The notes under the pieces: generated by a model
Told to the model about the DNA's origin: nothing
Database searches by the model: none
Seen by the model: only the letters and a program-made list of their open reading frames with translations
UHGV virus genome: UHGV-1280367
DNA length: 29,457 bases
Source: a virus
Direction: 5' to 3' (one strand)
Shown here: positions 2,925-20,790 of the stretch, one piece after another
Layout: the number at the start of each line of letters is the position of its first letter
How positions within the stretch are numbered: position 1 is the first letter of the stretch
Position numbers and translations under genes: made by a program

Positions 2925-2939
2925 TTACCTTAAAGGTAT
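2925..2939. promoter_or_regulatory. Operator-like palindrome TTACC-ttaaa-GGTAT upstream of int
   Basis: A copy of the 15-bp TTACC-N5-GGTAA motif that recurs across the window, 43 bp upstream of the int start. Confidence 0.4.
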
Positions 2940-4430: not shown

Positions 4431-5077
4431 GCTGCACGCTCCCGCCCCTGGTTGTCTGTTGGTGACAGCGGAGTATTGCTGAATGCATTTGTTAATCTGG
4501 CAATATCCAACGCGTATCCAGGGTGTAGTTGCACTGCCGGGTCTTCGCACTGATTACCCCAAACATCGAAACCATGAGACGACTGGCGGGCGAACAGTTC
4601 AATGCGAGAAACATCGCCTAACAATTGCACAAGTTTTTCACGAACGATATCTGGTTTTCTTGAATGCTCAAGCCGCGGTGCGGTAAATGACTGAACGATC
4701 CCTGCATTAATGCGCGTAGGTAGTTTTCCCTTTACCGCAAACAGGCAATCTTCACTATTGGCGCGAGTCATGTGCCCCATACCCATAACCAGTTTATCTG
4801 GTTGTCGACTACCACATTTTATCCACGTGAAGCCCTTCATGGTCATCAGACGGAATCCCCAGGATTCAACAACTTTTAGTGCTTCGAGTGGTTGTGTTGG
4901 CACCCACCACATGGCCAACAGACAGTTTTCATCGGCCAAATCCCACACAGGAAGGCGGCAGATATCCAGCACACTCATAACCGGATATTTAAAACCGGCA
5001 CCGCGATTACCATCTGCGGCTTTGTCCCGGTATACCCAGGGTGGATCTGCATAGATTAGTGTGTATTTCTTAGTCAT
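4427..5077 (-). CDS. MT-A70 family N6-adenine DNA methyltransferase
   Basis: 216 aa. N-terminal YADPPW catalytic motif and overall pattern typical of phage orphan Dam-like methylases. Confidence 0.75.
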   Translation of the reverse strand: MTKKYTLIYADPPWVYRDKAADGNRGAGFKYPVMSVLDICRLPVWDLADENCLLAMWWVPTQPLEALKVVESWGFRLMTMKGFTWIKCGSRQPDKLVMGMGHMTRANSEDCLFAVKGKLPTRINAGIVQSFTAPRLEHSRKPDIVREKLVQLLGDVSRIELFARQSSHGFDVWGNQCEDPAVQLHPGYALDIARLTNAFSNTPLSPTDNQGRERAA

Positions 5078-5369
5078 AAACCACCCCGCAACATCCTATG
5101 CCGCTATAGTCGCCACGGCGAAGGCCGTTACCTTTTGTGATACATTGGTCCCTGCGAACCGCGATCCTTGCACGCTCAACATCACCAGAAGCAACATCCA
5201 TACACTGAAGCCAAAGGTGGGCGGCAATGCGGAACTGCCCTTTTTTCTCTCTTTCAATCGCGCGTTTTTCGATCTCTATCGCCGCAGGAGTAACGGCAAC
5301 AACCTTTGAAGGGCTGCGCATTGAAACCTTGTTCATGTGATATTTTTCAAGTCGGCTTAACTTTCTCAC
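5070..5369 (-). CDS. Hypothetical protein
   Basis: ORF overlapping the methyltransferase start by 8 nt; start is uncertain (GTG at 5369 or ATG at 5336). No recognisable motif. Confidence 0.35.
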   Translation of the reverse strand: MRKLSRLEKYHMNKVSMRSPSKVVAVTPAAIEIEKRAIEREKKGQFRIAAHLWLQCMDVASGDVERARIAVRRDQCITKGNGLRRGDYSGIGCCGVVYD

Positions 5370-5478: not shown

Positions 5479-5727
5479 TCATGCCGCGTTGCTCACGGGA
5501 CGATATACACGTTGCTGAACAGGAGGTTTTTTACCCTGGAACTCTGCCGGGCTTGCTGCCTGACGTTCATCAAGCCAACGCTCAACTTCATCACGGTTCC
5601 ATGCGCAGCGTTTATCGGTGATATACCAGCGTTTAGGAAATTCCCCTGCGCGCTCCATACGGTCGATAGTGCTCCATGACAGTGGCACCACCGCCATGAG
5701 TTCCTTCTTACCTAATGCACCTTTCAT
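5479..5727 (-). CDS. AlpA-family DNA-binding protein (putative excisionase or regulator)
   Basis: 82 aa; the segment LSWSTIDRMERAGEFPKRWYITDKRCAWNRDEVERWL matches the AlpA/Xis-like helix-turn-helix pattern. Confidence 0.65.
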   Translation of the reverse strand: MKGALGKKELMAVVPLSWSTIDRMERAGEFPKRWYITDKRCAWNRDEVERWLDERQAASPAEFQGKKPPVQQRVYRPVSNAA

Positions 5728-8178: not shown

Positions 8179-8255
8179 TTACCGTTGAGGTAATAATTAT
8201 GCTTATTTGGTTTGGTGTCAATAGATATGAGTTAAAAAAATTACCCGTAAGGTAA
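8179..8255. promoter_or_regulatory. Leftward early promoter/operator region with two TTACC-N5-GGTAA palindromes (8179..8193, 8241..8255)
   Basis: Two exact copies of the palindrome lie between the repressor terminator and the first leftward gene. Confidence 0.5.
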
Positions 8256-8312: not shown

Positions 8313-8897
8313 TTATTGTTTGCTTTTTTCGTTCTGGTTGATGACAAATTCAATGTAACTTTCGATCTTTGCTTTCTCGGTTTCGGGTAACAATGCGTAG
8401 CGCGAGCGGTCATAGTTGATGGTCGCAGGGTCGTGCGGGTGAATCAGTAATTCATAGCCGTGACGCCCGAATGCGGATGCCACATTCTCCAGGGTGGAAA
8501 TGGAAACGCTAACCTCATTGTTTAACAGGCGGCTGATTGTCACCTGGGCGACGCCGGATGCGCGGTGAAGTTTTCCCTGTGTTGAAAGGTCGCGGCTTTC
8601 GCTCATCCAGCGTTCCAGGTTGTGAGCCGCCAGCTGACCAATGTCGCTTGGGCCGACAGGCTGAAAACCTTCCTGAGAAAGCGAGCGATCGATATCAAGC
8701 CAGTTACGGGGTTTATTGGCGGCAGCTTCAATTTTTCGCGCAACCTGGTCGCCGATAACCTTCTTGCCAAGAGCCCAGCGGTTTACCAGATTTGCCTGAG
8801 TTCCAAGTTTTTCTGCCATCCGCGTCTGAACACCATTGAATTCACGGTCGATCAAGTCGTTGAGATTTTGCCTGCGGACGTCCTGGATACTTTTCAT
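8313..8897 (-). CDS. Phage repressor (CI-like), two helix-turn-helix regions, no S24 peptidase domain
   Basis: 194 aa. XRE-type HTH pattern near the N-terminus and a second HTH-like segment around residues 110-150. Divergent from the Cro-like gene across an operator-rich intergenic region. Confidence 0.65.
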   Translation of the reverse strand: MKSIQDVRRQNLNDLIDREFNGVQTRMAEKLGTQANLVNRWALGKKVIGDQVARKIEAAANKPRNWLDIDRSLSQEGFQPVGPSDIGQLAAHNLERWMSESRDLSTQGKLHRASGVAQVTISRLLNNEVSVSISTLENVASAFGRHGYELLIHPHDPATINYDRSRYALLPETEKAKIESYIEFVINQNEKSKQ

Positions 8898-8952: not shown

Positions 8953-9015
8953 TTACCCAACAGGTAAATGCACCTCATAGGTAACTATCCTTGATTTTTG
9001 TTACCTTATGGGTGA
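8953..9015. promoter_or_regulatory. Immunity-region operator cluster, three palindromes (8953..8967, 8970..8984, 9001..9015)
   Basis: TTACC-caaca-GGTAA, GCACC-tcata-GGTAA and TTACC-ttatg-GGTGA in the 154-bp repressor/cro intergenic region, arranged like an OR1-OR2-OR3 set. Confidence 0.55.
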
Positions 9016-9051: not shown

Positions 9052-9282
9052 ATGAGCGATAACGGACATTTCGATTTCAAAAAGCACTGGCTTGCACTTA
9101 CTCCGGATGAGCGTGAAGCCTTCGCACAGGAAGCCGGAACGACGAGTCACTATATCCAGACTCACTTAACAGGTAAGCGCAAAATGCCAGGTAAAGTATT
9201 GATGAATGGGCTTTTTAAAGCCTGTAAAACAAGACAATGGCTGCGCTCAAAAGCAGAACTGGCATACTTCTTCTACTCATGA
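9052..9282 (+). CDS. Cro-like (YdaS/Cro family) DNA-binding protein
   Basis: 76 aa divergent from the repressor. HTH-like segment LTPDEREAFAQEAGTTSHYIQTHLTGKRKMP. Confidence 0.6.
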   Translation: MSDNGHFDFKKHWLALTPDEREAFAQEAGTTSHYIQTHLTGKRKMPGKVLMNGLFKACKTRQWLRSKAELAYFFYS

Positions 9283-9337: not shown

Positions 9338-9352
9338 GCACCTTAAAGGTAA
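9338..9352. promoter_or_regulatory. Operator-like site GCACC-ttaaa-GGTAA
   Basis: Shares the core accttaaaggta with the site upstream of int. Lies between the tR1-like terminator and the zinc-ribbon gene. Confidence 0.4.
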
Positions 9353-9432: not shown

Positions 9433-9633
9433 ATGGAAATCATTACACGTATTGATGCCGCAAAGCGCGGACTTAAACGCTACTACACCGGAAAAACATG
9501 TAAGCACGGACATGACAGTGAACGCTGGGTTTACAACGGACACTGTGTTGAGTGCACCATGGAATCAAACCGTCGTATCAGGGCAGAGATTAAGCAGATC
9601 ATGATTAATTCCTCCCCACAACATTCAAGCTGA
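9433..9633 (+). CDS. Small zinc-ribbon protein (Cys/His cluster), possible cII-like regulator
   Basis: 66 aa from the ATG at 9433, with an AGGGA-type ribosome-binding site upstream. Motif C-x-H-G-H ... C-x-x-C. Assigned by position between cro and O; function unproven. Confidence 0.4.
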   Translation: MEIITRIDAAKRGLKRYYTGKTCKHGHDSERWVYNGHCVECTMESNRRIRAEIKQIMINSSPQHSS

Positions 9634-9648
9634 TAGCGGAGATTAATC

Positions 9649-10464
9649 ATGAGCAGACATGCAACAGATTGGGCCTGGGAGACAGATCCAGGTAGCTCGT
9701 CATTAAAGCTCATACTGCTCTCGATGGCTGACAGAGCCGATGAATATAACCTCTGCTACCCCAGCATAGAACGCCTCGTTAAAGACACTTGCCTGAATAA
9801 AAAAACCGTGCAGGCCGGGCTTATATCGCTCATGAAAATGGGGCTTATTTCAGATACCGGAGAGAGAAAGGGAGCGACGAAAAGAGTGCGGGTTTTCTCT
9901 CTTAATATAACCAAAAACGGGAACATTAAAGGCAACCGGGAAGGGGGTAATGAACCCGAAAACGGTAATGTTACCGAAAACGGGAATATACCCAAAAACG
10001 GGATGTTGAATGATCCCAAAAACGGGATGTTGAATGATCCCAAAAACGGGATCCAGAACCAGTCATATAACCAGTCATTTAACCAAGAGAGGGAGAGCAG
10101 GACAAAAACCGGGGATTCTGTTCCTCATGACCCCGGCGCAAACAACGCCGTGATGAATAACTTTGTTCCTCCTGGTGGGCCAGGGCAATTAGGCAAATTT
10201 GTCATGCATGAACAATGGCAGCCATCAGATGACTTTCTTCGGAAAAGCTCATTGCAGGGGATCTACCTGGACAGTCTGCCAACGGCACAGGAACTTGCAG
10301 AGTTCAGAATTTACTGGATGGCTGAGGGTAAGGCATACCATCAGGCACAGTGGGAGCAGAAGCTGGCAAGGCGGCTGCAGATTAGCAGACAGAAGCAATC
10401 AACATTACCTGATAACAACGTTCCGCACTGGAACAGCCCTGAAGCGTGGGAGGATTTCTTGTGA
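9649..10464 (+). CDS. Replication initiator (lambda O-like, N-terminal HTH, DnaT-like C-terminus)
   Basis: 271 aa. The N-terminus resembles the phage replisome-organiser N-domain; the gene contains DNA iterons; it is followed by a lambda P-like gene. Confidence 0.7.
   Translation: MSRHATDWAWETDPGSSSLKLILLSMADRADEYNLCYPSIERLVKDTCLNKKTVQAGLISLMKMGLISDTGERKGATKRVRVFSLNITKNGNIKGNREGGNEPENGNVTENGNIPKNGMLNDPKNGMLNDPKNGIQNQSYNQSFNQERESRTKTGDSVPHDPGANNAVMNNFVPPGGPGQLGKFVMHEQWQPSDDFLRKSSLQGIYLDSLPTAQELAEFRIYWMAEGKAYHQAQWEQKLARRLQISRQKQSTLPDNNVPHWNSPEAWEDFL
9911..10049. repeat. Origin-like iteron array: six direct repeats of CC(A/G)AAAACGG
   Basis: Copies start at 9911, 9956, 9974, 9992, 10016 and 10040 (spacings 45, 18, 18, 24, 24 bp). 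They encode the peptide repeats PKNGMLND and lie inside the initiator gene, as in lambda ori. Confidence 0.7.
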
Positions 10465-11251: not shown

Positions 11252-11271
11252 GCGCGATGGCGCATTTTTTT
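11252..11271 (+). terminator. Weak terminator-like hairpin plus T-run after the P-like gene
   Basis: gcgc-gatg-gcgc followed by a T7 run; the stem is only 4 bp. Confidence 0.3.
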
Positions 11272-11283
11272 ACGTCTCGATGA

Positions 11284-11360
11284 TTACCTTCTAGGTAATA
11301 AAATATTCTAAAATCTATTGATTTCGTGTCTTATGTGGTTTTTAATTACCTCAGAGGTAA
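11284..11360. promoter_or_regulatory. Two TTACC-N5-GGTAA palindromes (11284..11298, 11346..11360) upstream of the DUF1064-like gene
   Basis: TTACC-ttcta-GGTAA and TTACC-tcaga-GGTAA. The second overlaps the ribosome-binding region of the gene starting at 11364. Confidence 0.5.
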
Positions 11361-11363
11361 ATC

Positions 11364-11708
11364 ATGAGAAAACAGATACAGGCTCTTGGTCGACTCAAAA
11401 CAGGCCAGATGAACAAAACAGAATCTGCGTATTGCCAGCACCTTGAGCAGCGTAAACGTGCAGGGGAAATCGCCTGGTATCGATTCGAGGGTATCAAGCT
11501 GCGGTTAGCTGACAACACGTTCTATACGCCCGATTTTGCTGTGATGCTCGCCACCGGCGAGATGGAACTGCACGAAGTGAAAGGTTTCTGGACCGACGAC
11601 GCCAGAGTGAAAACCAAAGTCGCCGCAGATCAGTATCCGTTCCGAATCATCGGGGTAACGGTTAAACCAAAGAAAGCAGGTGGTGGCTGGAACATCGAAG
11701 AGTTCTGA
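11364..11708 (+). CDS. DUF1064-like small protein
   Basis: 114 aa; pattern AGEI...Y.PDF.V...E.HEVKG resembles the DUF1064 family common in lambdoid early regions (recognition by eye). Confidence 0.5.
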   Translation: MRKQIQALGRLKTGQMNKTESAYCQHLEQRKRAGEIAWYRFEGIKLRLADNTFYTPDFAVMLATGEMELHEVKGFWTDDARVKTKVAADQYPFRIIGVTVKPKKAGGGWNIEEF

Positions 11709-11769
11709 ATCGACGATCTTTTTAGTTATCAATGTAATCAATAAGTTATGTGGATAAGCGAGGGTAAAG

Positions 11770-12330
11770 ATGGAAAGTAATATCAAAGGGTTAGTTTACG
11801 CCGGGCATGAGATGGCTTCGGAACTGAAAGCAGAATGTGGTGCCGTTGATATGCGTAGTGTGGCAAAGCTGATCAGCGATTTGGCAACGCAACTGGAAGT
11901 GCAACTGGTGCGTGCTAATGCGATGGCGTCGGAGAATGAGGCGTTGAAGTCGAACCTGATTTACTGGGGCGGCGAAGATTCAGGGGCTGTCAGAAGTCCG
12001 CTTGATTACGCCCGTGCAGCCGGGCTGGAATCTGGAGAGGAGTTTGAGATGCAAGTGGCAGCCAGAATGCCGAACCTGACTTATCGCGTTGTGTCGAATT
12101 CCCGATTCAGAACAACAATAGAACTGGTTGACGGATCATTGCCGGAAACCCCAGCCACCGATGCTTTTCTGGCTGAAGTACGGGCGCAGGCGTTTAATGA
12201 CCTTTGCTCGGCGTTCGTTAAACACGCGAATCTCGCGGGAATGGATGATGGTGAGCTAGTGAGTCTTAAATATGCGACGGACGCCCTGCTGCATTGTGCG
12301 GAACAGCTTCGCAAAGGAGGCAACCAGTGA
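11770..12330 (+). CDS. Hypothetical protein
   Basis: 186-aa ORF with compact spacing to its neighbours; no recognisable motif. Confidence 0.4.
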   Translation: MESNIKGLVYAGHEMASELKAECGAVDMRSVAKLISDLATQLEVQLVRANAMASENEALKSNLIYWGGEDSGAVRSPLDYARAAGLESGEEFEMQVAARMPNLTYRVVSNSRFRTTIELVDGSLPETPATDAFLAEVRAQAFNDLCSAFVKHANLAGMDDGELVSLKYATDALLHCAEQLRKGGNQ

Positions 12331-12872
12331 GTGTAACGGTTGAAAAGATTGATGTGTTGTCATTCGTTATAACCGGTGCAGAGCGACTAGATCCGGTTCG
12401 AGTGATGATTGAAAACTACGAACCTGGTAAGGGAAGAATCACCATCACCAGCTACGGAAAAGCGTGGACTGCGGCTTGGTTTGCTATGGGCGGTGATGAT
12501 GTGCAGACGTTCATTAAGCGAGTCAGCAACGACTATCTAATCGACAATTTCGACCCTCAACTGCTAAGCACGGTCGACGATGACAACGATGCAAATCTGC
12601 TTTTCGTGAAGTCAGAAATCATAAAGTTACGAAGAGAGAGAGAAATCGACGCTGTACAGGCTCGCGAAATGTGGGACGAGGCGGAAAACGCCGATGACGT
12701 AAAAGAAAGCTGCTGCTGTTTCGGCGTCGGTAACAAACTACTGAATCTCTTTGGTGATGATCCGTGGTATGCCAACTGGCCAACGATACCAAACCCGAAA
12801 TACCAGTATCTGGAACGCGTACTTAATGCAGTGAGAGACGGTCTTAAGCAAATAGAGAAGGTGGAACCATGA
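12327..12872 (+). CDS. Hypothetical protein
   Basis: GTG start at 12327 overlaps the upstream stop (GTGA), with a strong AAAGGAGG ribosome-binding site 7 nt upstream. Confidence 0.45.
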   Translation: MSVTVEKIDVLSFVITGAERLDPVRVMIENYEPGKGRITITSYGKAWTAAWFAMGGDDVQTFIKRVSNDYLIDNFDPQLLSTVDDDNDANLLFVKSEIIKLRREREIDAVQAREMWDEAENADDVKESCCCFGVGNKLLNLFGDDPWYANWPTIPNPKYQYLERVLNAVRDGLKQIEKVEP

Positions 12873-13168
12873 CTGTATGTCTTATTGATAAACGTCGACG
12901 TGGGCAACAAATACCATCTGTTGAAATGCCGAATCACACATGGTTTTGCGTACTTGATATCGATGGTATGGATACGTTGGTTGACACTCGTCATTACTGC
13001 GATACCGCAACAGCTACTCCGGCGAAAGCAAAGAAAATGGCTGCTCTGATAGAAAACTGGACTCCACCTGATGGTTGGTGCAATGGGAATGATCGAGATT
13101 GGCACGAAAAAATGAAGGGCTATATCTGCGATTTTTTACGTAAATGCAACGGCTTCAGGGTGATGTGA
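12869..13168 (+). CDS. Hypothetical protein
   Basis: 99-aa ORF overlapping the upstream stop. Confidence 0.4.
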   Translation: MTVCLIDKRRRGQQIPSVEMPNHTWFCVLDIDGMDTLVDTRHYCDTATATPAKAKKMAALIENWTPPDGWCNGNDRDWHEKMKGYICDFLRKCNGFRVM

Positions 13169-13169
13169 C

Positions 13170-13454
13170 ATGAGCAAGATTGACTATCAGGCACTGCGTG
13201 AAAAGGCAGAGAAAGCAACGTGTGGTGTGTGGTCGCTCGAATATGGAGAGGGCCGATTTGATGGTGATGATGCACTAATTCATCGCGAGGCTGCTGGGTA
13301 TATTCCCATTTGCAGAATTGAAGGAGCGCATCCAGAAAGCGGTTTCGATGAAGATTTCCAAATGGATTCGAAAGAATGCATTGACGTAATTCGTGAAGAA
13401 GTAAAGCGATGGAATGATTCCCGCGCCGCTGGTATTCGCATCAAAGGAGAGTGA
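13170..13454 (+). CDS. Ea22-like small protein
   Basis: N-terminal DYQALREKAEKATCGVW resembles the ead/Ea22-like family motif (recognition by eye). Confidence 0.45.
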   Translation: MSKIDYQALREKAEKATCGVWSLEYGEGRFDGDDALIHREAAGYIPICRIEGAHPESGFDEDFQMDSKECIDVIREEVKRWNDSRAAGIRIKGE

Positions 13455-13455
13455 G

Positions 13456-13647
13456 ATGAACGGACAAATATCAATTGTTCGACCAGGAGCATGTGACGAT
13501 CGCGAAATACGAATGATTATTCGTCTGGCGAGGGGGAAAACAATAACTGCTCTCATTACTCCAGAAAATCTCGCATTAGCATTAACCGGAAAGTCAGACC
13601 TGCCAGTAGAGCTAAAGCTGCGAAATGTTGAGATTAAGGTGAAATAG
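13456..13647 (+). CDS. Hypothetical small protein (63 aa)
   Basis: ATG at 13456 with a GGAGAG ribosome-binding site, directly after the upstream stop. Confidence 0.35.
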   Translation: MNGQISIVRPGACDDREIRMIIRLARGKTITALITPENLALALTGKSDLPVELKLRNVEIKVK

Positions 13648-13649
13648 TT

Positions 13650-14402
13650 ATGAATACTCTTACCAAAGAATGGTTACAGAACACGATTACCGGAATTGAG
13701 TCGATAATAGACGATAAATCGTTTGTATGTAGTGAAATAGCATTCGAAATAGGTGTGGTTAACAACATACTTACCGCATTTAAAATTGCACTGGCATCGC
13801 TGGCAGCAGTATCGGATGAACGGGCAGCCTATGAATTATTTATGGAGAAGCGTTTCGGGGAATCTGTAGATCGCCGCAGGGCAAAAAATGGTGATAGAGA
13901 ATACATGGCATGGGATATGGCGCTTGGCTGGATTATCTGGTGTCACCGCGCCGCCATGCTTCAGGGAGGCCAACCTGTAAACCAAACTTACAACTTGCCA
14001 GAATTAATCGAAGGCATGGAAGTTTCCATTGATGTAAGCACTTGTGATGCTGATTTAGGTAATCGCTATTTCGGCACCGTCACCGAGGCGTTAGAACTTG
14101 ATACTGCCAAGAATGGTTACATCCTCCTGGTTCAGGACGCAGAGCCAAACTTCGATGTAAATGGCAACTCTCCGGCAACTCCGGATAGTTGGATAAGCTG
14201 TAGTGAGCGAATGCCGGAAGACACCAAAATGTTACTGGCATTTAGTCAAGGTGAAATCGTGGCCGCATATTGGAACTGGGTTGTAAATCCAATTGATTAC
14301 AAAAAATACAGAGCTTTCACGTATTTATCAGGAAATATCCTAGATGACGTAACCCACTGGATGCCGCTGCCAGAACCGCCGCAGGAGGTTAACCGTGGCT
14401 AA
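13650..14402 (+). CDS. DUF551-domain protein
   Basis: C-terminal ...SERMPED...THWMPLPEPP is the characteristic DUF551 ending (recognition by eye). Confidence 0.55.
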   Translation: MNTLTKEWLQNTITGIESIIDDKSFVCSEIAFEIGVVNNILTAFKIALASLAAVSDERAAYELFMEKRFGESVDRRRAKNGDREYMAWDMALGWIIWCHRAAMLQGGQPVNQTYNLPELIEGMEVSIDVSTCDADLGNRYFGTVTEALELDTAKNGYILLVQDAEPNFDVNGNSPATPDSWISCSERMPEDTKMLLAFSQGEIVAAYWNWVVNPIDYKKYRAFTYLSGNILDDVTHWMPLPEPPQEVNRG

Positions 14403-14676
14403 CCTGCAACTTGCCGTCAAAGGTGAATACTTCGATGCCATGATTCGCGGAGATAAAACGGAAGAGTATCGCCTGTGTAATGACTACTGGGAAAAGCGAA
14501 TTATGTTCCGGGAATATGACCGCCTGATTATCACAAAGGGATATCCGAAGCGTGACGATTCCAGCCGCAGAATTGACGTTCCGTATGGCGGCTATGAAAT
14601 CAAGACAATCACACATCCGCACTTCGGCGATAAACCGGTAAAGGTATACGCGATAAAGGTAAATATTGATGGCTAA
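14395..14676 (+). CDS. DUF3850/ASCH-like small protein
   Basis: 93 aa; the start of the protein, LAVKGEYFDAMIRGDKTEEYR, resembles the DUF3850 fold family (recognition by eye). Confidence 0.4.
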   Translation: MANLQLAVKGEYFDAMIRGDKTEEYRLCNDYWEKRIMFREYDRLIITKGYPKRDDSSRRIDVPYGGYEIKTITHPHFGDKPVKVYAIKVNIDG

Positions 14677-15007
14677 ATCAGCAGCAGAGCGCAAAGCCGC
14701 TCAGAGAGCCAGACAAGCTGCATCTGGTGTACGTAAGCTGGAGATTGTGCTTGATGCTCAGGAAATTGAAATGCTGGAGCGTAACTGTGCCACACGTCGC
14801 CCCGGGCGTGCGCCTTACGAATTTGGTGAGTATATAGCGTTACTGATCCGCCAGGATGATGCACGCGTGCGCGGGCGTATAAAATCGATCAGCAGAAAAC
14901 GTTGCGGTAAGTGCGGCGAGAGAGTTCCTGTGAATTCATGCCCGTGTAATGGTGACTCGCAATGCTGGGTAACCAAAGGCTGGCATGAAACGAAATTAAT
15001 AGTGTGA
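14669..15007 (+). CDS. Putative ribbon-helix-helix-like DNA-binding protein with C-terminal Cys-rich zinc finger; candidate late-gene regulator
   Basis: N-terminal ERKAAQRARQAASGVRKLEIVLDAQEIEMLER resembles RHH regulators; C-terminal CGKCGER...CPCNGDSQC cysteine cluster. ATG at 14669 (the track starts at a TTG at 14666). Confidence 0.35.
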   Translation: MAKSAAERKAAQRARQAASGVRKLEIVLDAQEIEMLERNCATRRPGRAPYEFGEYIALLIRQDDARVRGRIKSISRKRCGKCGERVPVNSCPCNGDSQCWVTKGWHETKLIV

Positions 15008-15024
15008 CATGTCACGAAGGTGTT

Positions 15025-15237
15025 ATGCCAAAAATACGCTACGACCTTGAAGATATGAGAGATAACTCAGCAAATTTTCCGAAAGAGGTTAAATTTCTCA
15101 TGCATAAGTATGGTTGCGCCAGGAGGGATATAGTTATCGACAGTCAGCACCCTTGCGGCGAGGATGTAATTTTCATTCGCGGTAAATGGGAAGGGTATCT
15201 TGACGAGAGTTTTTACGATGAATTTGATGGACTTTGA
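15025..15237 (+). CDS. Hypothetical small protein
   Basis: ATG at 15025 preceded by a GAAGGTG ribosome-binding site (the track ORF starts at a GTG at 15004). Confidence 0.35.
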   Translation: MPKIRYDLEDMRDNSANFPKEVKFLMHKYGCARRDIVIDSQHPCGEDVIFIRGKWEGYLDESFYDEFDGL

Positions 15238-15279
15238 ATACTGCCGCCAACTATGGCGGCTTTATTTTGCATGGTACTA

Positions 15280-15312
15280 TTACCACAACGGTAACTATTA
15301 CCACGGTGGTTA
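15280..15312. promoter_or_regulatory. Two operator-like palindromes immediately upstream of terS (15280..15294, 15298..15312)
   Basis: TTACC-acaac-GGTAA and the weaker variant TTACC-acggt-GGTTA, ending at the terS start codon. Confidence 0.4.
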
Positions 15313-15908
15313 TGATGCCTGCTGAACCTAAAACCTATAAACGCAAATCAACGCAATTTAAGCCACTAACAGCAATGCAGGAGGCTTATTGCCAGTCATA
15401 CATCAAAACGCCTGAAAACCAGACTCAGGCAGCGATTAACGCAGGATTCTCCCCAAATACAGCGGCAGTTAAAGCCAGTGTCATGATGCGCGATGAACGC
15501 ATTCAAAAACGGATTGCCGAGCTGATGGAAGAGCGCAACAAACGAATGCGCGTCAGTGCTGATTACGTTCTCATGCGCCTGGTGGAGATCGACCAGATGG
15601 ACGTGATCGACATCCTCAACGACGATGGGAGCCTTAAGCCAATCCGCGAGTGGCCGAAAATCTGGCGCACTACGCTTAGCGGCTTTGATCTGTCATCGAC
15701 CATCATGAACATGAACGAGGATTCGATAGAGACAATCCTCAAAAAAATTAAATGGCCTGACAAGGTGAAGAACCTCGAACTGATTGGTAAGCACGTCGAC
15801 GTCAACGCATTCAAAGAACGCCTGGATGTTAATGTGAATGTGACAATTGCTGATCGCATAGCAGCAGCCAGGAAGCGACTCAAAGAACGTCAGGATGGTA
15901 ATCAGTGA
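15312..15908 (+). CDS. terS: Terminase small subunit
   Basis: From the ATG at 15312 (MMPAEPKT...): QEAYCQSYIKTPENQTQAAINAGFSPNTAAVKASVMMRDERIQKRI is a typical small-terminase N-terminal DNA-binding region. The track's longer N-terminal extension is low-complexity. Confidence 0.7.
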   Translation: MMPAEPKTYKRKSTQFKPLTAMQEAYCQSYIKTPENQTQAAINAGFSPNTAAVKASVMMRDERIQKRIAELMEERNKRMRVSADYVLMRLVEIDQMDVIDILNDDGSLKPIREWPKIWRTTLSGFDLSSTIMNMNEDSIETILKKIKWPDKVKNLELIGKHVDVNAFKERLDVNVNVTIADRIAAARKRLKERQDGNQ

Positions 15909-17380
15909 CAGATACAGCGTTATCTCCTGAAGAGCAGTTGATCGAGGATATTGCAGGGTTCACTCACGATCCGCTTGGCTATGCTCTCTATGCGTTCCCG
16001 TGGGGGGAAGAGGGGACTGAACTGGCACATGCTACCGGCCCACGTCAATGGCAGGCTGATGCGTTCCGAGAGATACGTGATCACCTGCAGAATCCAGAGA
16101 CGCGCTATCAGCCGCTTATGCTGGCACGCGCTTCTGGTCACGGTATTGGTAAATCCGCATTTATCTCAATGCTGATCAACTGGGGCATGTCCACTTGCGA
16201 GGATTGTAAGGTCGTGGTGACCGCCAACACCGACAACCAGCTACGAACGAAGACCTGGCCGGAAATTATCAAGTGGTCAAACCTTGCTATCACGAAAGAC
16301 TGGTTTACCTGTACCGCTACCGCGATGTACAGCAATGACCCTGGGCACGACAAGCGGTGGCGAGCTGACGCAATCCCCTGGTCTGAGCACAACACTGAGG
16401 CATTCGCCGGACTACACAACGAGCGCAAACGCATCATCGTGGTATTCGATGAAGCGTCGAATATTGCCGATCTTGTGTGGGAGGTAGCAGAGGGTGCGCT
16501 GACGGACGAAGACACCGAAATCATCTGGGTGGCGTTCGGGAACCCGACGCGTAACACCGGGCGTTTCCGTGAATGTTTCCGCAAGTACAAACACCGCTGG
16601 AAGTGTGCGCAGATTGACAGCCGGACGGTGGAAGGCACTAACAAACAGCAGTTGCAGAAATGGGTTGATGACTACGGGGAAGACAGCGACTTCGTTAAAA
16701 TCCGTGTGCGCGGCATATTCCCTGATGCATCTGAATTGCAGTTTATCCCTACCGGTCTTACTGATGAGGCAATGAAACGGGTGGTAACCGCTGCGCAGGT
16801 TGCACATGCTCCGGTGATAATCGGCGTTGACCCGGCATACTCAGGCGTTGATGACGCGGTGATATACCTGCGGCAGGGGCTGCACAGTAAGGTGCTGTGG
16901 ACTGGCAACAAGACTACTGACGATCTGATTATGGCGAAGCGTATCGCTGACTTTGAAGACCAGTACCAGGCTGACGCAGTGTTCATCGACTTCGGTTACG
17001 GAACTGGTCTGAAGTCAATCGGTGACGGCTGGGGTCGTACATGGCAACTTGTTCCGTTCGGTGGCGCGTCTACTGACCCGCAGATGCTCAATAAGCGCGG
17101 GGAGATGTTCAACTCATGCAAGACATGGCTGAGGCTGGGCGGCATGCTGGATGACCAGGAAACAGCGGACGACCTGTCGGCGGCAGAGTACAAAGTTCGA
17201 GTGGACGGTAAAATCGTTATCGAACCGAAGGAAGATATCAAGGAGCGGCTTGGGCGCTCGCCGGGTAAAGGCGATGCGCTACTGCTGACGTTTGCTTTCC
17301 CTGTGTCGAAGCGTCTGCGAATTCCCGGGCAGCAGAACCAGCAAGGCAAGGCCATCACAGATTACGATCCCTATGATTAA
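15905..17380 (+). CDS. terL: Terminase large subunit
   Basis: 491 aa. Walker A-like ARASGHGIGKS and Walker B-like IIVVFDEAS, with a nuclease-like C-terminal half. GTG start overlaps the terS stop. Confidence 0.85.
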   Translation: MTDTALSPEEQLIEDIAGFTHDPLGYALYAFPWGEEGTELAHATGPRQWQADAFREIRDHLQNPETRYQPLMLARASGHGIGKSAFISMLINWGMSTCEDCKVVVTANTDNQLRTKTWPEIIKWSNLAITKDWFTCTATAMYSNDPGHDKRWRADAIPWSEHNTEAFAGLHNERKRIIVVFDEASNIADLVWEVAEGALTDEDTEIIWVAFGNPTRNTGRFRECFRKYKHRWKCAQIDSRTVEGTNKQQLQKWVDDYGEDSDFVKIRVRGIFPDASELQFIPTGLTDEAMKRVVTAAQVAHAPVIIGVDPAYSGVDDAVIYLRQGLHSKVLWTGNKTTDDLIMAKRIADFEDQYQADAVFIDFGYGTGLKSIGDGWGRTWQLVPFGGASTDPQMLNKRGEMFNSCKTWLRLGGMLDDQETADDLSAAEYKVRVDGKIVIEPKEDIKERLGRSPGKGDALLLTFAFPVSKRLRIPGQQNQQGKAITDYDPYD

Positions 17381-17430: not shown

Positions 17431-17450
17431 AGCCAGCTCATCGGCTGGCT
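17431..17450. terminator. Hairpin after terL and downstream of the reverse cargo gene, possible bidirectional terminator
   Basis: agccagc-tcatcg-gctggct; on the minus strand it is followed by a T-rich tract (ttgtttta). A second hairpin lies at 17407..17424. Confidence 0.4.
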
Positions 17451-17470
17451 GTTTGTGACATGTCACAGAG

Positions 17471-18092: not shown

Positions 18093-18169
18093 TGGCGTGG
18101 CATGCAGGATTCGAACCTGCGACCAACCGCTTAGAAGGCGGTTGCTCTGTCCAGCTGAGCTAATGCCAC
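18093..18169 (-). tRNA. tRNA-Arg, anticodon UCU
   Basis: Minus-strand sequence GTGGCATTAGCTCAGCTGGACAGAGCAACCGCCTTCTAAGCGGTTGGTCGCAGGTTCGAATCCTGCATGCCACGCCA folds by eye into a cloverleaf: 7-bp acceptor stem, D arm GCTC/GAGC, anticodon loop CTTCTAA, T arm GCAGG-TTCGAAT-CCTGC, encoded CCA. Close to E. coli argU as I recall it. Confidence 0.85.
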
Positions 18170-18491
18170 AACGCTGAGAGCACTTAGCCTGTTAAGGCGC
18201 CACACTTTGTCGCGGCTCCATAAATGCTCTCATCGTTGTACCCTCGTCTCTTCCGAGGTGTCACACCGAATCGCCTGGATGGTGAATCCCCGTGCGCGGA
18301 ATAAAACCGCTCGACTTGCACATTCCGGCTACCTGGTTCGTTTGCCCGAGCAAGGGAGGGTGCCCCTTAAACGTATCCAGACCGCTATCGGCGCATGTGC
18401 CATACGCCGTACTGCTCAAAATAAAAGCTCACTCCACCTGTTCAATTTAACGACAAGCCAGTCAGGTTAGTAACCGGAATGAACTCTTTGG

Positions 18492-18506
18492 TTACCTGAA
18501 AGGTAA
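18492..18506. promoter_or_regulatory. Operator-like palindrome TTACC-tgaaa-GGTAA upstream of the portal region
   Basis: Exact copy of the recurring motif, about 90 bp before the small ORF at 18597. Confidence 0.4.
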
Positions 18507-18596
18507 TAATTCGTGCGTTAAATGTCAACTGTCTACGATAAATAAATCATATGTGGTTAAATTGGTAATAATTTAATTGCGTACGGAGTCATTGAT

Positions 18597-18817: not shown

Positions 18818-20497
18818 ATGGCGGAAACAACTAAAGAGCGATTGAACAAACAGTTCGCACAACTTGAAAGCGAGCGTCAGTCGTTCGAGCCGCACTGGCG
18901 CGAGTTGAGTGATTACATCAACCCGCGTGGTTCCCGCTTTCTGACTTCTGAGGTCAACCGTAACGATCGACGCAATACACGCATTATTGATTCGACCGGG
19001 ACTATGGCGGCGCGCACTCTCGCCAGCGGCATGATGTCAGGCATCACAAGCCCCGCGCGTCCGTGGTTTCGCCTGGCTACGCCAGATCCTGAAATGATGG
19101 ATTATGGCCCTGTTAAGTTGTGGCTTGAGGCGGTGCAGAACCGCATGAACGATATGTTCAATAAGTCGAATCTCTATCAGTCGCTGCCGCAGTTATACGG
19201 AAGCCTCGGCACATACAGCACTGGTGCAATGGCAGTGCTGGAGGATGACGAGGACATCATTCGCACAATGCCATTCCCGATAGGAAGTTACTACCTGGCT
19301 AACTCACCTCGTGGCAGTGTGGACACCTGTTTTCGCAAGTTCTCTATGACTGTTCGTCAGCTTGTTCAGGAGTTCGGGCTAAATAACGTCAGCGAATCCG
19401 TAAAAAGCATGTGGGAAAGCGGCACCTACGAGAAGTGGATTGAAGTGATGCATTCGGTTTACCCGAACATTGACCGCGATACATCGAAGCTGGATAGCAA
19501 GAACAAGCCATTCAAATCGGTTTATTACGAGGTTGGTGGCGATAACGACAAGTTGTTGCGTGAGTCCGGATTCGATGAGTTTCCAATTATGGCTCCGCGC
19601 TGGGAAGTTAACGGCGAAGATGTTTATGGATCATCATGCCCGGGTATGCTGGCGCTTGGACCTGTTAAGGCATTGCAGCTTCTCCAGAAGCGCAAGTCGC
19701 AGTTGATTGATAAAGCCACCAATCCGCCGATGGTTGCTCCGACTTCCCTCAAGAATCAGCGCGCCTCCCTTCTTCCTGGCGACATCACGTATATCGATCA
19801 GATTACTGGTCATGATGGTTTCAGGCCTGCTTATCTGGTTAACCCCAGTACAGCAGATTTGGTGGCAGACATTCAGGACACTCGTCAAATCATTAACAGC
19901 GCCTACTTTGTCGATCTGTTCATGATGTTGCAGAACATCAATACCCGCTCGATGCCTGTTGAAGCGGTGATCGAAATGAAAGAAGAAAAACTTCTGATGT
20001 TGGGGCCGGTTCTGGAGCGTCTGAACGACGAATGTCTTAATCCTCTCATTGACCGCGCTTTCTCGATGATGGTGCGTAAAAACATGCTGCCGCCACCGCC
20101 TGACGCGATGGAAGGTATGCCCCTGAAGGTCGAATACATTTCCGTCATGGCTCAGGCGCAGAAGTCTATCGGCCTGTCCAGTCTGGCGTCTACGGTCAAC
20201 TTCATTGGTCAACTTGCGCAAGCGAAACCAGAAGCTCTCGACAAACTCAACGTTGATCAGGCGATCGATGCATTCGCTGATATGTCCGGAGTGTCTCCAA
20301 CCGTCATTGTTCCGCAGGAACAGGTTGAGCAGGCTCGCCAGCAACGGGCACAGCAACAACAGCAGCAACAAATGATGGAGATGGGGATGGCGGCGGCACA
20401 GGGTGCCAAGACGCTAAGCGAAGCTAAAACTTCGGATCCGAGTGTTTTGTCAGCTATGGCGAATGCAGTTAGTGGTCAGGGTGGGCAATCACAATGA
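18818..20497 (+). CDS. Portal (head-to-tail connector) protein, T7 gp8-like
   Basis: 559 aa. The C-terminal Gln-rich tail QARQQRAQQQQQQQMMEMGMAAAQGA parallels the T7 gp8 C-terminus (QKQQKMAQQSMQMGMDNGAAALAQG) as I recall it. Size and position fit. Confidence 0.75.
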   Translation: MAETTKERLNKQFAQLESERQSFEPHWRELSDYINPRGSRFLTSEVNRNDRRNTRIIDSTGTMAARTLASGMMSGITSPARPWFRLATPDPEMMDYGPVKLWLEAVQNRMNDMFNKSNLYQSLPQLYGSLGTYSTGAMAVLEDDEDIIRTMPFPIGSYYLANSPRGSVDTCFRKFSMTVRQLVQEFGLNNVSESVKSMWESGTYEKWIEVMHSVYPNIDRDTSKLDSKNKPFKSVYYEVGGDNDKLLRESGFDEFPIMAPRWEVNGEDVYGSSCPGMLALGPVKALQLLQKRKSQLIDKATNPPMVAPTSLKNQRASLLPGDITYIDQITGHDGFRPAYLVNPSTADLVADIQDTRQIINSAYFVDLFMMLQNINTRSMPVEAVIEMKEEKLLMLGPVLERLNDECLNPLIDRAFSMMVRKNMLPPPPDAMEGMPLKVEYISVMAQAQKSIGLSSLASTVNFIGQLAQAKPEALDKLNVDQAIDAFADMSGVSPTVIVPQEQVEQARQQRAQQQQQQQMMEMGMAAAQGAKTLSEAKTSDPSVLSAMANAVSGQGGQSQ

Positions 20498-20790
20498 CAG
20501 ATTACGAAGACGATCAACTGAAAGAAGAAAACGCCCGTAAGCAACGTGACATGGCGCAGCGTGAAATTGATGACATTCGCTTTGTCATGAGCAGTGAACA
20601 GGGGCGTCGCGTTGTCTGGTCTGTGCTGGAGAAAGGCCGGGTGTTTTCCGCTATCTCTCCGATGGACGCTATGGCAATGGCATTTTATGAGGGGCAACGC
20701 AATCTGGCGCTGGAGCTGTTTCAGCGCGTTATGGCGCATTGCCCTGAACAGTATTTGAAGATGGCCAAAGAGGCCAGTGAACAGGAGTGA
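20494..20790 (+). CDS. Hypothetical head-assembly protein
   Basis: 98-aa ORF translationally coupled between the portal and scaffold genes. Confidence 0.4.
   Translation: MTDYEDDQLKEENARKQRDMAQREIDDIRFVMSSEQGRRVVWSVLEKGRVFSAISPMDAMAMAFYEGQRNLALELFQRVMAHCPEQYLKMAKEASEQE

Follow-up and report, generated by a model that had tools for sequence, protein, structure and literature searches.

A hypervariable accessory segment and a candidate repressor-gated terminase promoter in a phiV10/epsilon15-like Escherichia coli phage

Phages of the Uetakevirus type carry an accessory region (phiV10 p45–p55; epsilon15 gp42–gp49) between replication protein P and terS, and the same position is occupied by the block studied here (11364–15237) in the window, meaning the whole 29,457-nt stretch of virus genome UHGV-1280367. 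By its sequence, we assign the window to a temperate podophage of the phiV10/epsilon15 type (Uetakevirus); phiV10, TL-2011b, ZX5 and others match it in pieces at 96–97% DNA identity and share its gene order. In these phages, as in the window, the first gene of the region is DUF1064-like, the last conserved gene is a p55/gp49 homologue and a terminator precedes terS, whereas the middle genes differ, and the window has one further gene (g10), absent from phiV10, TL-2011b and epsilon15.

The block also resembles the nin region of lambda, with small, overlapping, dispensable-looking genes running from replication to the late genes and a terminator before the late operon. It differs from lambda nin with Q, PR' and tR' in lacking Q, the NinB-to-NinH set and a lysis cassette afterwards. 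Furthermore, a repressor operator lies 3' of the terminator, and the promoter appears after the terminator, not before it. The window repressor belongs with the Rep/Ant immunity of SPC32H, an epsilon15-like Salmonella phage, being a full-length homologue of its Rep (PDB 5D50, E=3.5e-42); the Rep tetramer has been reported on palindromic sites (PMC9638917).

The accessory block between replication and packaging

All ten plus-strand ORFs of the block are present, with some starts refined by reading the sequence and by the point at which the PHROG profile alignment begins. They are listed with the flanking hairpins and with their occurrence among 57 close relatives, where counted.

11252–11271, + strand: tR2, weak terminator-like hairpin GCGC-GATG-GCGC followed by T7, read from the sequence
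11364–11708, + strand: g1, DUF1064/Holliday-junction-resolvase-like nuclease (PF06356 E=3.4e-7; phrog_190 E=6e-43); 54/57
11770–12330, + strand: g2, Eae-like protein (phrog_492 E=1e-45; phiV10 p46 is annotated eae-like); 51/57, at a median identity of only 45%
12327–12872, + strand: g3, phrog_3451, whose GTG start codon overlaps the g2 stop in the sequence GTGA; 3/57
12869–13168, + strand: g4, DUF7739 (PF24881 E=1.5e-21); 7/57
13170–13454, + strand: g5, short protein with an Ead/Ea22-like N-terminus (PF13935 E=1.1e-8, residues 2–43); 15/57
13456–13647, + strand: g6, 63 aa, phrog_1222, the PHROG alignment beginning at residue 15 of a longer ORF; 3/57
13650–14402, + strand: g7, C-terminal DUF551 domain (PF04448 E=3.9e-21)
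14395–14676, + strand: g8, small ASCH-like protein (phrog_625 E=1e-49); 38/57
14669–15007, + strand: g9, ribbon-helix-helix (RHH) DNA-binding protein with a C-terminal Cys4 zinc knuckle
15025–15237 (or from a GTG at 15004), + strand: g10, 70 aa, phrog_1541 by PHROG profile match; 18/57
15243–15268, + strand: tR3, strong intrinsic terminator at the end of the early-right transcription unit, GCCGCC-AACTAT-GGCGGC followed by UUUAUUUU

The preliminary description called these ten genes compact and coupled, which is true of seven of the nine junctions: a 4-nt overlap joins g2 to g3 and g3 to g4, an 8-nt overlap joins g7 to g8 and g8 to g9, and g4/g5, g5/g6 and g6/g7 are spaced by 1–2 nt. The two loose junctions are g1–g2 (gap of 61 nt) and g9–g10 (about 17 nt). 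Its family labels can be kept for g1 (DUF1064-like, 31.1 bits against a cutoff of 24.7) and g7 (DUF551), and Ea22-like fits the N-terminal 43 residues of g5 but not the rest of that protein. For g8, labelled DUF3850-like, the Pfam ASCH match is only sub-threshold (E=0.084), although the RefSeq homologue phiV10 p54 bears the name ASCH. The DUF7739 family of g4 was absent from that description.

The block is of an ordinary kind, the hypervariable accessory ("nin/ea-like") part of the rightward early arm in an E. coli phage. It is mosaic: only g1 and g9 are near-constant among the 57 relatives, the distance between them ranges from 2161 to 4559 nt, and the best relative covers only 54% of 11364–15237. 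Gene g10 is a presence/absence insert between a palindrome at the g9 stop codon (PAL1, below) and tR3; the gap between g9 and terS measures 308 nt with g10 and 122 nt without it in the relatives, and phiV10 retains only a 3' remnant.

The left edge of the block is the tR2 hairpin, 3' of replication gene P. Its fold reaches only -7.5 kcal/mol (z -1.2), and the same short hairpin with T7 also occurs in epsilon15, phiV10 and the relative L032. At the right edge, the tR3 hairpin (15243–15260) with its U-tract folds at -15.8 kcal/mol (z -4.4; 0/200 shuffles fold as well), and its equivalent is an annotated terminator in phiV10 and epsilon15.

Repressor operators and the candidate terS promoter

Regulatory features on either side of the block and the packaging genes that follow it are listed here.

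5070–5369, - strand: PerC-like activator
5479–5727, - strand: AlpA-family protein
8179–8193 and 8241–8255: operators on either side of the leftward promoter TTGACA-17-AATTAT
8313–8897, - strand: Rep, immunity repressor and predicted operator-binding protein, SPC32H Rep homologue
8953–8967, 8970–8984 (GCACC variant) and 9001–9015: operators at the rightward promoter
9052–9282: Cro-like protein
11284–11298: operator TTACCTTCTAGGTAA, exact TTACC-N5-GGTAA; the epsilon15 equivalent is annotated "repressor"
11318–11360, + strand: candidate restart promoter for the block, TTGATT-17-TTTAAT, with operator
15272–15294, + strand: candidate terS promoter, extended -10 with operator
15298–15312: degenerate second operator TTACCACGGTGGTTA, a one-mismatch match that overlaps both the Shine-Dalgarno sequence and the start codon of terS
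15312–17380, + strand: packaging operon, with terS at 15312–15908 (PF03592 E=1e-29) and terL at 15905–17380 (named by homology to phiV10 and TL-2011b)
17431–17450: bidirectional terminator hairpin

The operator motif TTACC-N5-GGTAA has 11 matches in the window against 0.31 expected, and none of 100 shuffles had as many. Copies are found at both early promoters, upstream of g1 and of terS, and close to the tRNA gene; all are intergenic apart from a one-mismatch match at 662–676 inside a holin gene. In the epsilon15 RefSeq record, equivalent sites at three positions are marked protein_bind "repressor", and in L032 the motif is unchanged although Rep is only 48% identical. This annotation and the statistics point to immunity-repressor sites, to which Rep probably binds. 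Operators reaching as far as the accessory block and the terS promoter were met with only as annotation, in the epsilon15 record, and not in the text of a paper.

Each rightward terminator is followed by an operator: tR1 by 9338–9352, tR2 by 11284 and 11346, and tR3 by 15280. The second site after tR2, TTACCTCAGAGGTAA (11346–11360), adjoins the -10 of the candidate restart promoter and ends 3 nt 5' of the g1 ATG, with the -10/operator junction arranged as in the leftward early promoter (AATTAT-TACC). tR2 is weak, so that transcripts from the early promoter probably continue through it into the block, and the restart promoter is uncertain.

Before terS, the extended -10 TG-G-TACTAT (TGGTACTAT, 15272–15280) is fused to the operator TTACCACAACGGTAA (15280–15294), in the layout of the leftward early and tRNA-side promoters, and transcription would start at about 15287. 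This -10/operator block precedes terS in all 57 close relatives. The wider sequence GCRTGnTAnTATTACC-N5-GGTAA is invariant in seven phages from four genera (Escherichia, Salmonella, Klebsiella and Enterobacter), although its surroundings vary, both in the hairpin upstream and in the 5' UTR. The candidate promoter has no recognisable -35, its -10 hexamer fits at only 4/6 positions, and it was absent from the output of a generic promoter scan. Operator-like sites before terS had been pointed out earlier, and they are present, as the tR3 hairpin and a direct repeat, ACTATTACCAC, at 15276 and 15294. The repeat is the product of the two terS-side operator copies, of which the second is not kept in Klebsiella or L032 relatives. 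These sites are not an orphan feature beside g9, being copies of a Rep operator that recurs at the early promoters, g1 and the tRNA gene.

With moderate confidence, we propose a model in which terS and terL are served by a sigma-70 promoter of their own, gated by the repressor and placed after the strong terminator tR3, and in which g9 belongs to a separate gene-plus-site module (below). The block would form one dense polycistronic unit, from the weak tR2 and its two operators to tR3, and the terminase operon would be transcribed from the extended -10 promoter at 15272–15280. The operator at 15280–15294 would cover the start region of this promoter, so that in a lysogen Rep would act directly to silence the packaging genes, as it would the early promoters and the accessory block. 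Inactivation of Rep (by an antirepressor in relatives) would then release every unit, with the terminators between them maintaining separate transcription. The preliminary view that the sequence does not show how the late genes are turned on was too pessimistic: the invariant extended -10, joined to a repressor operator just past the strong tR3, offers a concrete answer.

The operator at 18492 looks as if it goes with a leftward promoter, and no convincing promoter was found for the portal/head operon (18577 onward), so the model is limited to terS-terL. Counting against it, pure derepression leaves the early–late delay in infection of a naive cell without an obvious source; the Cro-like protein might occupy the Rep operators too.

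The g9 protein, its palindrome and rival late switches

The fold of g9 is a true ribbon-helix-helix with a Cys4 tail, as first described, and its gene is the last but one before terS. Homologues include phiV10 p55, epsilon15 gp49 and N15 gp46. It had been singled out as the only candidate regulator, which overlooks Rep and the PerC-like, AlpA-family and Cro-like proteins of the window.

The perfect 12-mer palindrome GTGACATGTCAC has two exact copies in the window.

15004–15015: PAL1, overlapping the g9 stop codon
17455–17466: PAL2, just 3' of terL, beginning 4 nt after the bidirectional terminator hairpin

Of the 57 relatives, 54 have an exact PAL1 at the g9 stop and 36 an exact PAL2, which has one mismatch in 7 more; PAL2 also follows terL in phiV10, epsilon15 and L082. 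The palindrome lies at or adjoining the stop codon of the homologue in epsilon15, Klebsiella phages, ZF40, Chlobot and N15. In a Mu-like phage it falls within the 3' end of the homologue gene, and L211 has a copy with one mismatch 3' of the stop. This linkage is kept by homologues with as little as 35% identity (N15) and across unrelated genome settings. Among 80 viral contigs with a 14-mer version, 20 also encode a g9 homologue, although the family is rare. In relatives with inserted genes the palindrome stays with g9 and the operator with terS. The probable target of g9 is GTGACATGTCAC and not the TTACC-N5-GGTAA operators.

Could g9 itself be the late switch, activating a nearby promoter from the palindrome or, Q-like, loading onto RNA polymerase so that early transcripts pass tR3 into terS-terL? 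The gene is the last one conserved in the early arm of all Uetakeviruses, its probable site is upstream of tR3, and its family carries the database label "transcriptional regulator". Lambda Q, too, has a zinc-binding tail, and in the distant relative L214 the homologue stands two genes before holin-lysozyme-terS-terL, a Q-like position. However, the RHH fold is unlike any Q fold and g9 matches no Q family. In ZF40 and Chlobot (the latter also with an N-like protein) its homologues occur alongside annotated Q-like proteins, in other genome arms and at a distance from the late operon; in the Mu-like phage the homologue precedes gemA. In the relatives, the palindrome and the terS promoter region lie anywhere from about 64 to about 790 bp apart, which is ill-suited to a fixed activator or loading geometry, and PAL2 sits after terL, where antitermination is unneeded. 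We consider this role unlikely. The gene-plus-site pair is found in ZF40, N15 and a lambda-like phage, all with annotated Q-like proteins, and in the Mu-like phage; given this coexistence, g9 is not a dedicated Q substitute. We read gene and palindrome as a portable pair of gene and site rather than as a late activator dedicated to that task.

The reported lack of a Q-type activator stands. No Q- or N-type family was matched in the scanned window ORFs (Pfam, PHROGs, NCBIfam), which among the large structural ORFs from 18818 onward comprised only 20494–20790 and 28537–28869. The annotation of the complete phiV10 genome contains no Q/N antiterminator, and Rfam found only the tRNA in the window and no known antiterminator RNA. 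Phages of the phiV10/epsilon15 type thus appear to be without a Q-type antiterminator.

Read-through from the early promoters might instead depend on unrecognised antitermination, by another phage protein such as the AlpA-family or PerC-like regulator, a host factor or an RNA element, with the operators acting as prophage-silencing roadblocks. An operator 3' of each rightward terminator would fit such roadblocks, both proteins are encoded in the window, and the Pseudomonas aeruginosa AlpA, unrelated despite the shared name, is a proven Q-like antiterminator (PMC7969949). The window protein, however, resembles PDB 8C3T ("AlpA family phage regulatory protein", E=3.5e-11), with no antitermination-complex chain among its PDB matches at E<=1; PHROGs groups it with excisionases, and its neighbour is a P4-type integrase. 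The Rfam result offers no RNA element of a known kind, and a roadblock alone leaves the invariance of TGnTAnTAT before the operator unexplained. This explanation, too, is improbable. That the repeats are packaging sites (pac, or terminase small-subunit recognition) rather than transcriptional operators is very doubtful: they lie directly 5' of terS, around where the phiV10 and epsilon15 records begin and end, but the 15-bp motif, unlike a pac site, recurs at both early promoters, upstream of g1 and close to the tRNA gene, and Klebsiella and L032 relatives keep the inverted repeat and not the direct one.

Comparison with dispersed-operator and RHH systems

For the dispersed operators of the window, parallels are P1 C1 and the "stoperators" of mycobacteriophage L5 gp71, in which one immunity repressor has genome-dispersed sites, also before non-early units. 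Compared with these, the window sites are few (about 10) and palindromic, each with a terminator and/or a -10 element, and a late activator such as the Lpa of P1 was not identified in the window.

The g9-palindrome module appears to be new to the literature, and the accessory block around it is ordinary. Compared with MatP/matS of E. coli, the g9 palindrome has a 2-bp spacer, not 3, and g9 has a Cys4 zinc knuckle that MatP lacks. No sequence relationship to MatP was detected (hhalign probability 0.2%), and no MatP family was among the matches listed for g9 (the first 25 of 38 Pfam families). The fold is shared with CopG/Arc/MetJ regulators and RHH centromere-binding proteins, and some family members give weak Pfam RHH_5 and RepB-RCR_reg matches. 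Relative to these proteins, g9 adds an N-terminal basic helix and the C-terminal zinc knuckle, and its site is at the 3' end or stop codon of the gene and not in the promoter. The tight linkage of site and gene is as in plasmid partition or copy-control cassettes.

Genome organisation and the accessory gene block

On nucleotide similarity and shared gene order, the window is a Uetakevirus, a phiV10/epsilon15-like podophage. The region 11364–15237 aligned piecewise, at 96–97% identity, to Escherichia phages EC.W1-9, PAS61, ZX5, phiV10, TL-2011b and the O157 typing phages 9 and 10, with the best single relative covering at most 54% of it. The gene order rep-cro-O-P-accessory-terS-terL-portal was identical to that of the annotated phiV10 and TL-2011b records, which run from repressor and cro-like gene through a DnaT-like initiator, a lambda-P-like gene and small genes to terS and terL. 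Pfam matches in the rest of the window included holins, endolysin, spanin, a P4-type integrase, an MT-A70 methylase, PerC-like, AlpA-like and RecT/YqaJ proteins, and also the HTH repressor, initiator, P and terS. The left end (region 1–2982) carries lysis genes for two holins, a GH19 endolysin and a DUF2514 spanin-like protein; a gap of ~300 bp separates them from the integrase. As the lysis genes adjoin the integrase at this end, the window represents the unintegrated, circularly permuted (virion) form and not an integrated prophage.

Within the initiator gene (DnaT/HTH), three adjoining tandem-repeat arrays were found at 9946–10085 (18 bp × 3.1; 24 bp × 2.6 with 100% identity; 12 bp × 2.4), which look like origin iterons lying within this gene, an arrangement seen in lambda O. 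The first gene past the terminator downstream of cro (9436–9633) encodes a small conserved protein that contains a CxHGH...HCxxC motif and belongs to phrog_1081 (unknown function). It is kept at 77% identity in L032, a further sequence with a g9 homologue, and could be a zinc-binding regulator.

Ten plus-strand ORFs (g1–g10) occupy 11364–15237, upholding the preliminary description of ten compact small genes between replication and packaging. Starts were revised from junctions and PHROG alignments for g3 (GTG at 12327, a GTGA overlap with g2), g6 (ATG at 13456) and g10 (ATG at 15025). Genes adjoin tightly at seven of the nine junctions, with a 4- or 8-nt overlap or a 1–2 nt gap, the exceptions being g1/g2 (61 nt) and g9/g10 (~17 nt).

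Family assignments of the block genes, all on the plus strand
g1: DUF1064; PHROG "Holliday junction resolvase"
g4: DUF7739
g5: Ead/Ea22, N-terminal 43 residues only
g7: DUF551, C-terminal
g8: phrog_625; ASCH match below threshold
g9 (14669–15007): phrog_536 "transcriptional regulator"
g2, g3, g6 and g10: PHROGs of unknown function

Gene content was highly variable even among 57 close relatives, near-identical prophages picked by g9 identity of at least 97%: g1 was present in 54, g8 in 38, g10 in 18, g5 in 15, g4 in seven, and g3 and g6 in three each. The distance from g1 to g9 ranged from 2161 to 4559 nt, with nearly one value per genome. The block is thus a routine hypervariable mosaic, and the corresponding region is known in sequence from phiV10, epsilon15 and dozens of prophages. 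The presence/absence polymorphism of g10 (15025–15237, phrog_1541, unknown function; 18/57) extends to other phages, as the gene is reduced to its last ~30 nt in phiV10 and TL-2011b, and other small genes stand in its place in Klebsiella and Enterobacter relatives.

Candidate regulators of late transcription

No match to a Q or N family was detected with Pfam, PHROGs or NCBIfam among the ten block proteins and the other scanned ORFs of the window, a set that took in 20494–20790 and 28537–28869 from the large structural ORFs from 18818 on. A Q/N antiterminator is likewise absent from the complete phiV10 annotation, and Rfam returned a tRNA-Arg as the sole match in the window, with no known antiterminator or other RNA family. 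The earlier statement that the window has no recognisable Q-type late activator therefore stands. Late-gene control in the phiV10/epsilon15 group was not described in the literature searched, including the ZX5 and epsilon15 packaging papers.

The g9 protein had also been put forward as the only candidate regulator, which proved too narrow, as the window additionally encodes PerC-like, AlpA-family, repressor and Cro-like proteins.

Candidate regulators encoded on the minus strand besides the repressor
5070–5369, minus strand: PerC-like "transcriptional activator" (phrog_868), early-left arm
5479–5727, minus strand: AlpA-family protein

PerC-family relatives are virulence-gene activators in pathogenic E. 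coli. A Pseudomonas aeruginosa protein named AlpA is a Q-like antiterminator (PMC7969949). This role was rejected for the AlpA-like protein of the window, which matched PDB 8C3T, "AlpA family phage regulatory protein" (E = 3.5e-11), had no antitermination-complex chain among its PDB matches at E ≤ 1, and falls into the PHROGs class "excisionase and transcriptional regulator". From these matches, it is probably an excisionase-type protein.

The g9 protein and its palindrome

At 50% identity, the small g9 family forms 177 clusters in a set of 1.84 billion representatives, and it has no Pfam model of its own. An alignment of 20 close homologues yielded a poor structure model, with a pLDDT of 60.8, which was replaced by one from 52 aligned sequences of distant members. 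By its predicted beta-alpha-alpha fold, which is not Q-like, g9 is a member of the ribbon-helix-helix (RHH; CopG/Arc/MetJ) superfamily. No Pfam RHH family scored above threshold, with RHH_5, RepB-RCR_reg and RHH_1 appearing below it in one or two of the 52 members, and a Foldseek search against viral structures gave no useful match. Assignment to the DksA/TraR C4 zinc fingers, which have a CxxC-x17-CxxC finger after a long helix, was rejected: profile searches of the C-terminal half against PDB reached TraR and YbiI at E ~0.1 only, short of a significant match, and the second CxxC is missing.

A perfect 12-bp palindrome, GTGACATGTCAC (GTGAC-N2-GTCAC), lies over the g9 stop codon at 15004–15015, and a second exact GTGACATGTCAC at 17455–17466, 4 nt past the terL terminator, so that the two copies bracket terS-terL in Uetakeviruses. 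Both are kept in phiV10, TL-2011b, epsilon15 and Klebsiella phages although their flanks have diverged. Of the 57 close relatives, 54 have an exact first copy; the second copy is exact in 36 and has one mismatch in seven more. The half-sites are conserved and the 2-bp spacer is variable, as fits a protein-binding palindrome. A g9 homologue was encoded in 20 of 80 viral contigs carrying a 14-mer version of the palindrome, and the pair occurs in podo-, myo-, lambda-like, Mu-like and N15-type phages.

Palindromes at g9 homologues outside the Uetakeviruses
ZF40 (myovirus): palindrome at or next to the stop of the g9 homologue; three exact palindromes in all (5125, 7622 and 14944), 0.14 expected
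Chlobot (lambda-like): palindrome directly after the g9 homologue
N15 (linear plasmid prophage): gp46, 35% identical to g9, has GTGACTGGTCAC at its stop (2767)
L212 (Mu-like): the g9 homologue contains GTGACTGGTCAC near its 3' end, at 5349
L211 (metagenomic contig): the stop is followed by GTAACGCGTCAC

In a P2-like Yersinia phage (vB_YenM_42.18, 2546–5279), a distant g9 homologue of 39% identity sits beside a gene annotated as "chromosome partition protein Smc"; the palindrome was not found near this homologue.

The linkage of palindrome and g9 homologues in unrelated contexts indicates that the two travel as a portable module, and on this co-occurrence the palindrome, rather than the repressor operator, is the likely target of g9. 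As to the preliminary idea that g9 may be the late-gene switch, gene position favours a role at the early/late boundary: in Uetakeviruses and in one other g9-bearing sequence (L214) the gene comes towards the end of the early arm and shortly ahead of the late genes. In other phages, however, its surroundings do not fit a dedicated late factor: the ZF40 homologue lies in the nin region alongside an annotated Q-like protein, that of Chlobot in the early-left arm alongside annotated Q-like and N-like proteins, and that of the Mu-like phage precedes gemA. Furthermore, palindrome and terS promoter lie from ~64 to ~790 bp apart among relatives, for which reason the palindrome was rejected as a fixed-geometry activator site for this promoter. 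The layout was also compared with that of a Q-type system, in which a constitutive promoter holding the factor-binding site is followed by a terminator ahead of the late genes; the terminator tR3 precedes terS and the palindrome lies upstream of tR3, with no convincing promoter found between the two. We consider the late-switch role improbable. The proposed regulator is an RHH protein, as had been noted, and is assigned here to a separate gene-plus-palindrome module; it is probably not a dedicated late factor.

The half-sites of the palindrome are identical to those of E. coli matS, which is 13 bp long (GTGAC[AG]N[TC]GTCAC, i.e. GTGAC-RNY-GTCAC), the palindrome being 12 bp with a 2-bp spacer and hence one base shorter. 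MatP, like g9, is an RHH protein. Genuine MatP proteins carry both PF06303 (N-terminal) and PF17414 (C-terminal), and g9 was rejected as a MatP, with an hhalign probability of 0.2% and no MatP family among the first 25 of 38 Pfam families matched by g9-family members; the likeness is one of mechanism at most, not of family membership. It is a long shot that g9, as an RHH/zinc-knuckle protein, and GTGAC-N2-GTCAC make up a cis-acting module that is undescribed and widely mobile, with the predicted site built into the g9 stop codon. By looping or insulating the packaging operon, such a module could provide the timing of late expression; alternatively it could, by analogy, act on phage DNA as MatP does at matS, e.g. 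as a place where SMC-type complexes are blocked or unloaded. The resemblance to matS lends this pair, found in many temperate phages, experimental interest.

Repressor operators and a candidate terS promoter

The inverted repeat TTACC-N5-GGTAA, allowing at most one mismatch, occurs 11 times in the window against 0.31 expected, and none of 100 shuffles had as many.

Operators and variant operators in the window
2925–2939: one mismatch, just before int
8179 and 8241: exact, flanking the leftward early promoter
8953 (exact) and 9001 (one mismatch): rightward early promoter
8970–8984: variant GCACC-N5-GGTAA, in the rep-cro region
9338–9352: variant GCACC-N5-GGTAA, directly after the strong terminator following the cro-like gene
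11284 and 11346: exact, before g1
15280 (exact) and 15298 (one mismatch): before terS
18492: exact, near the tRNA gene

An operator or variant thus follows each rightward terminator (9338–9352, 11284/11346 and 15280). In the RefSeq record of epsilon15, TTACCAAAACGGTAAT directly ahead of terS and two more positions outside the immunity region carry the annotation "protein_bind: repressor". We infer that these sites are targets of the immunity repressor (Rep, 8313–8897, minus strand), which is homologous over its full length to Rep of Salmonella phage SPC32H (PDB 5D50, E = 3.5e-42), a protein reported to act as a tetramer on palindromic sites (PMC9638917). The window shares with SPC32H/epsilon15 immunity both the Rep homologue and palindromic operators at the immunity region and at terS.

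The operator-like sites near g9 of the preliminary description turned out to merge two cis elements. The direct repeat ACTATTACCAC, present twice after tR3 and before terS, represents the flanks of the inverted-repeat operator, which is found at all repressor-controlled places, and was rejected as a g9 site; its second copy is not conserved in an alignment of seven phages.

The terminator tR3, between g10 and terS, is a strong intrinsic terminator with a stem at 15243–15260 followed by UUUAUUUU (−15.8 kcal/mol, z −4.4). Of the other two rightward terminators, the one following the cro-like gene (tR1) is strong, at −15.0 kcal/mol, and the one following P (tR2) is weak. An AATTAT −10 element adjoins the operator (AATTAT-TACC...) at both the leftward early promoter and the tRNA-side leftward promoter, and the same junction occurs before terS as TGG-TACTAT-TACC, an extended −10. 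Across seven phages of Escherichia, Salmonella, Klebsiella and Enterobacter, GC-R-TG-n-TA-n-TATTACC-N5-GGTAA is invariant, while the upstream hairpin, second repeat and leader are all variable; the third −10 position is C, G or T, fitting a non-critical position. This −10/operator block is kept in all 57 close relatives and, in L032, remains with terS despite two extra genes between g9 and terS.

The invariance of the block and its linkage to terS in L032 led us to read 15272–15294 as a candidate repressor-gated extended −10 promoter. The putative promoter lacks a −35 element and matches the −10 consensus at four of six positions; transcription would start near 15287, giving a 25-nt leader with a GGTGG Shine-Dalgarno sequence. 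The immunity repressor would then gate the terminase operon directly, acting at an operator that is joined to the extended −10 and lies behind a terminator. A possible restart promoter before g1 (TTGATT-17-TTTAAT-TACC) is a similar, weaker case. No convincing promoter for the portal/head operon was found by eye or by consensus scan.

A conserved non-coding stretch (18170–18540) separates tRNA-Arg(TCT) (18093–18169, minus strand) from the portal operon. Here, a leftward promoter (TAGACA-18-AATTAT, 18535–18506) adjoins the operator at 18492–18506, and an alignment of the minus strand from five relatives (~3 distinct sequences) contained helices with several compensatory changes. The epsilon15 annotation places an RNase III site in the equivalent stretch. 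The stretch may serve as a structured leader for a tRNA transcript under repressor control.

The earlier view that the late switch is not evident from the sequence holds as regards a Q protein and is revised for packaging, where the arrangement before terS suggests, by inference from sequence conservation, control of terS-terL by a repressor-gated promoter behind a terminator. This provides a concrete, testable scheme for late-gene control in this phage group. Compared with the N/Q cascade of lambda, direct gating by the repressor would be a simpler logic.
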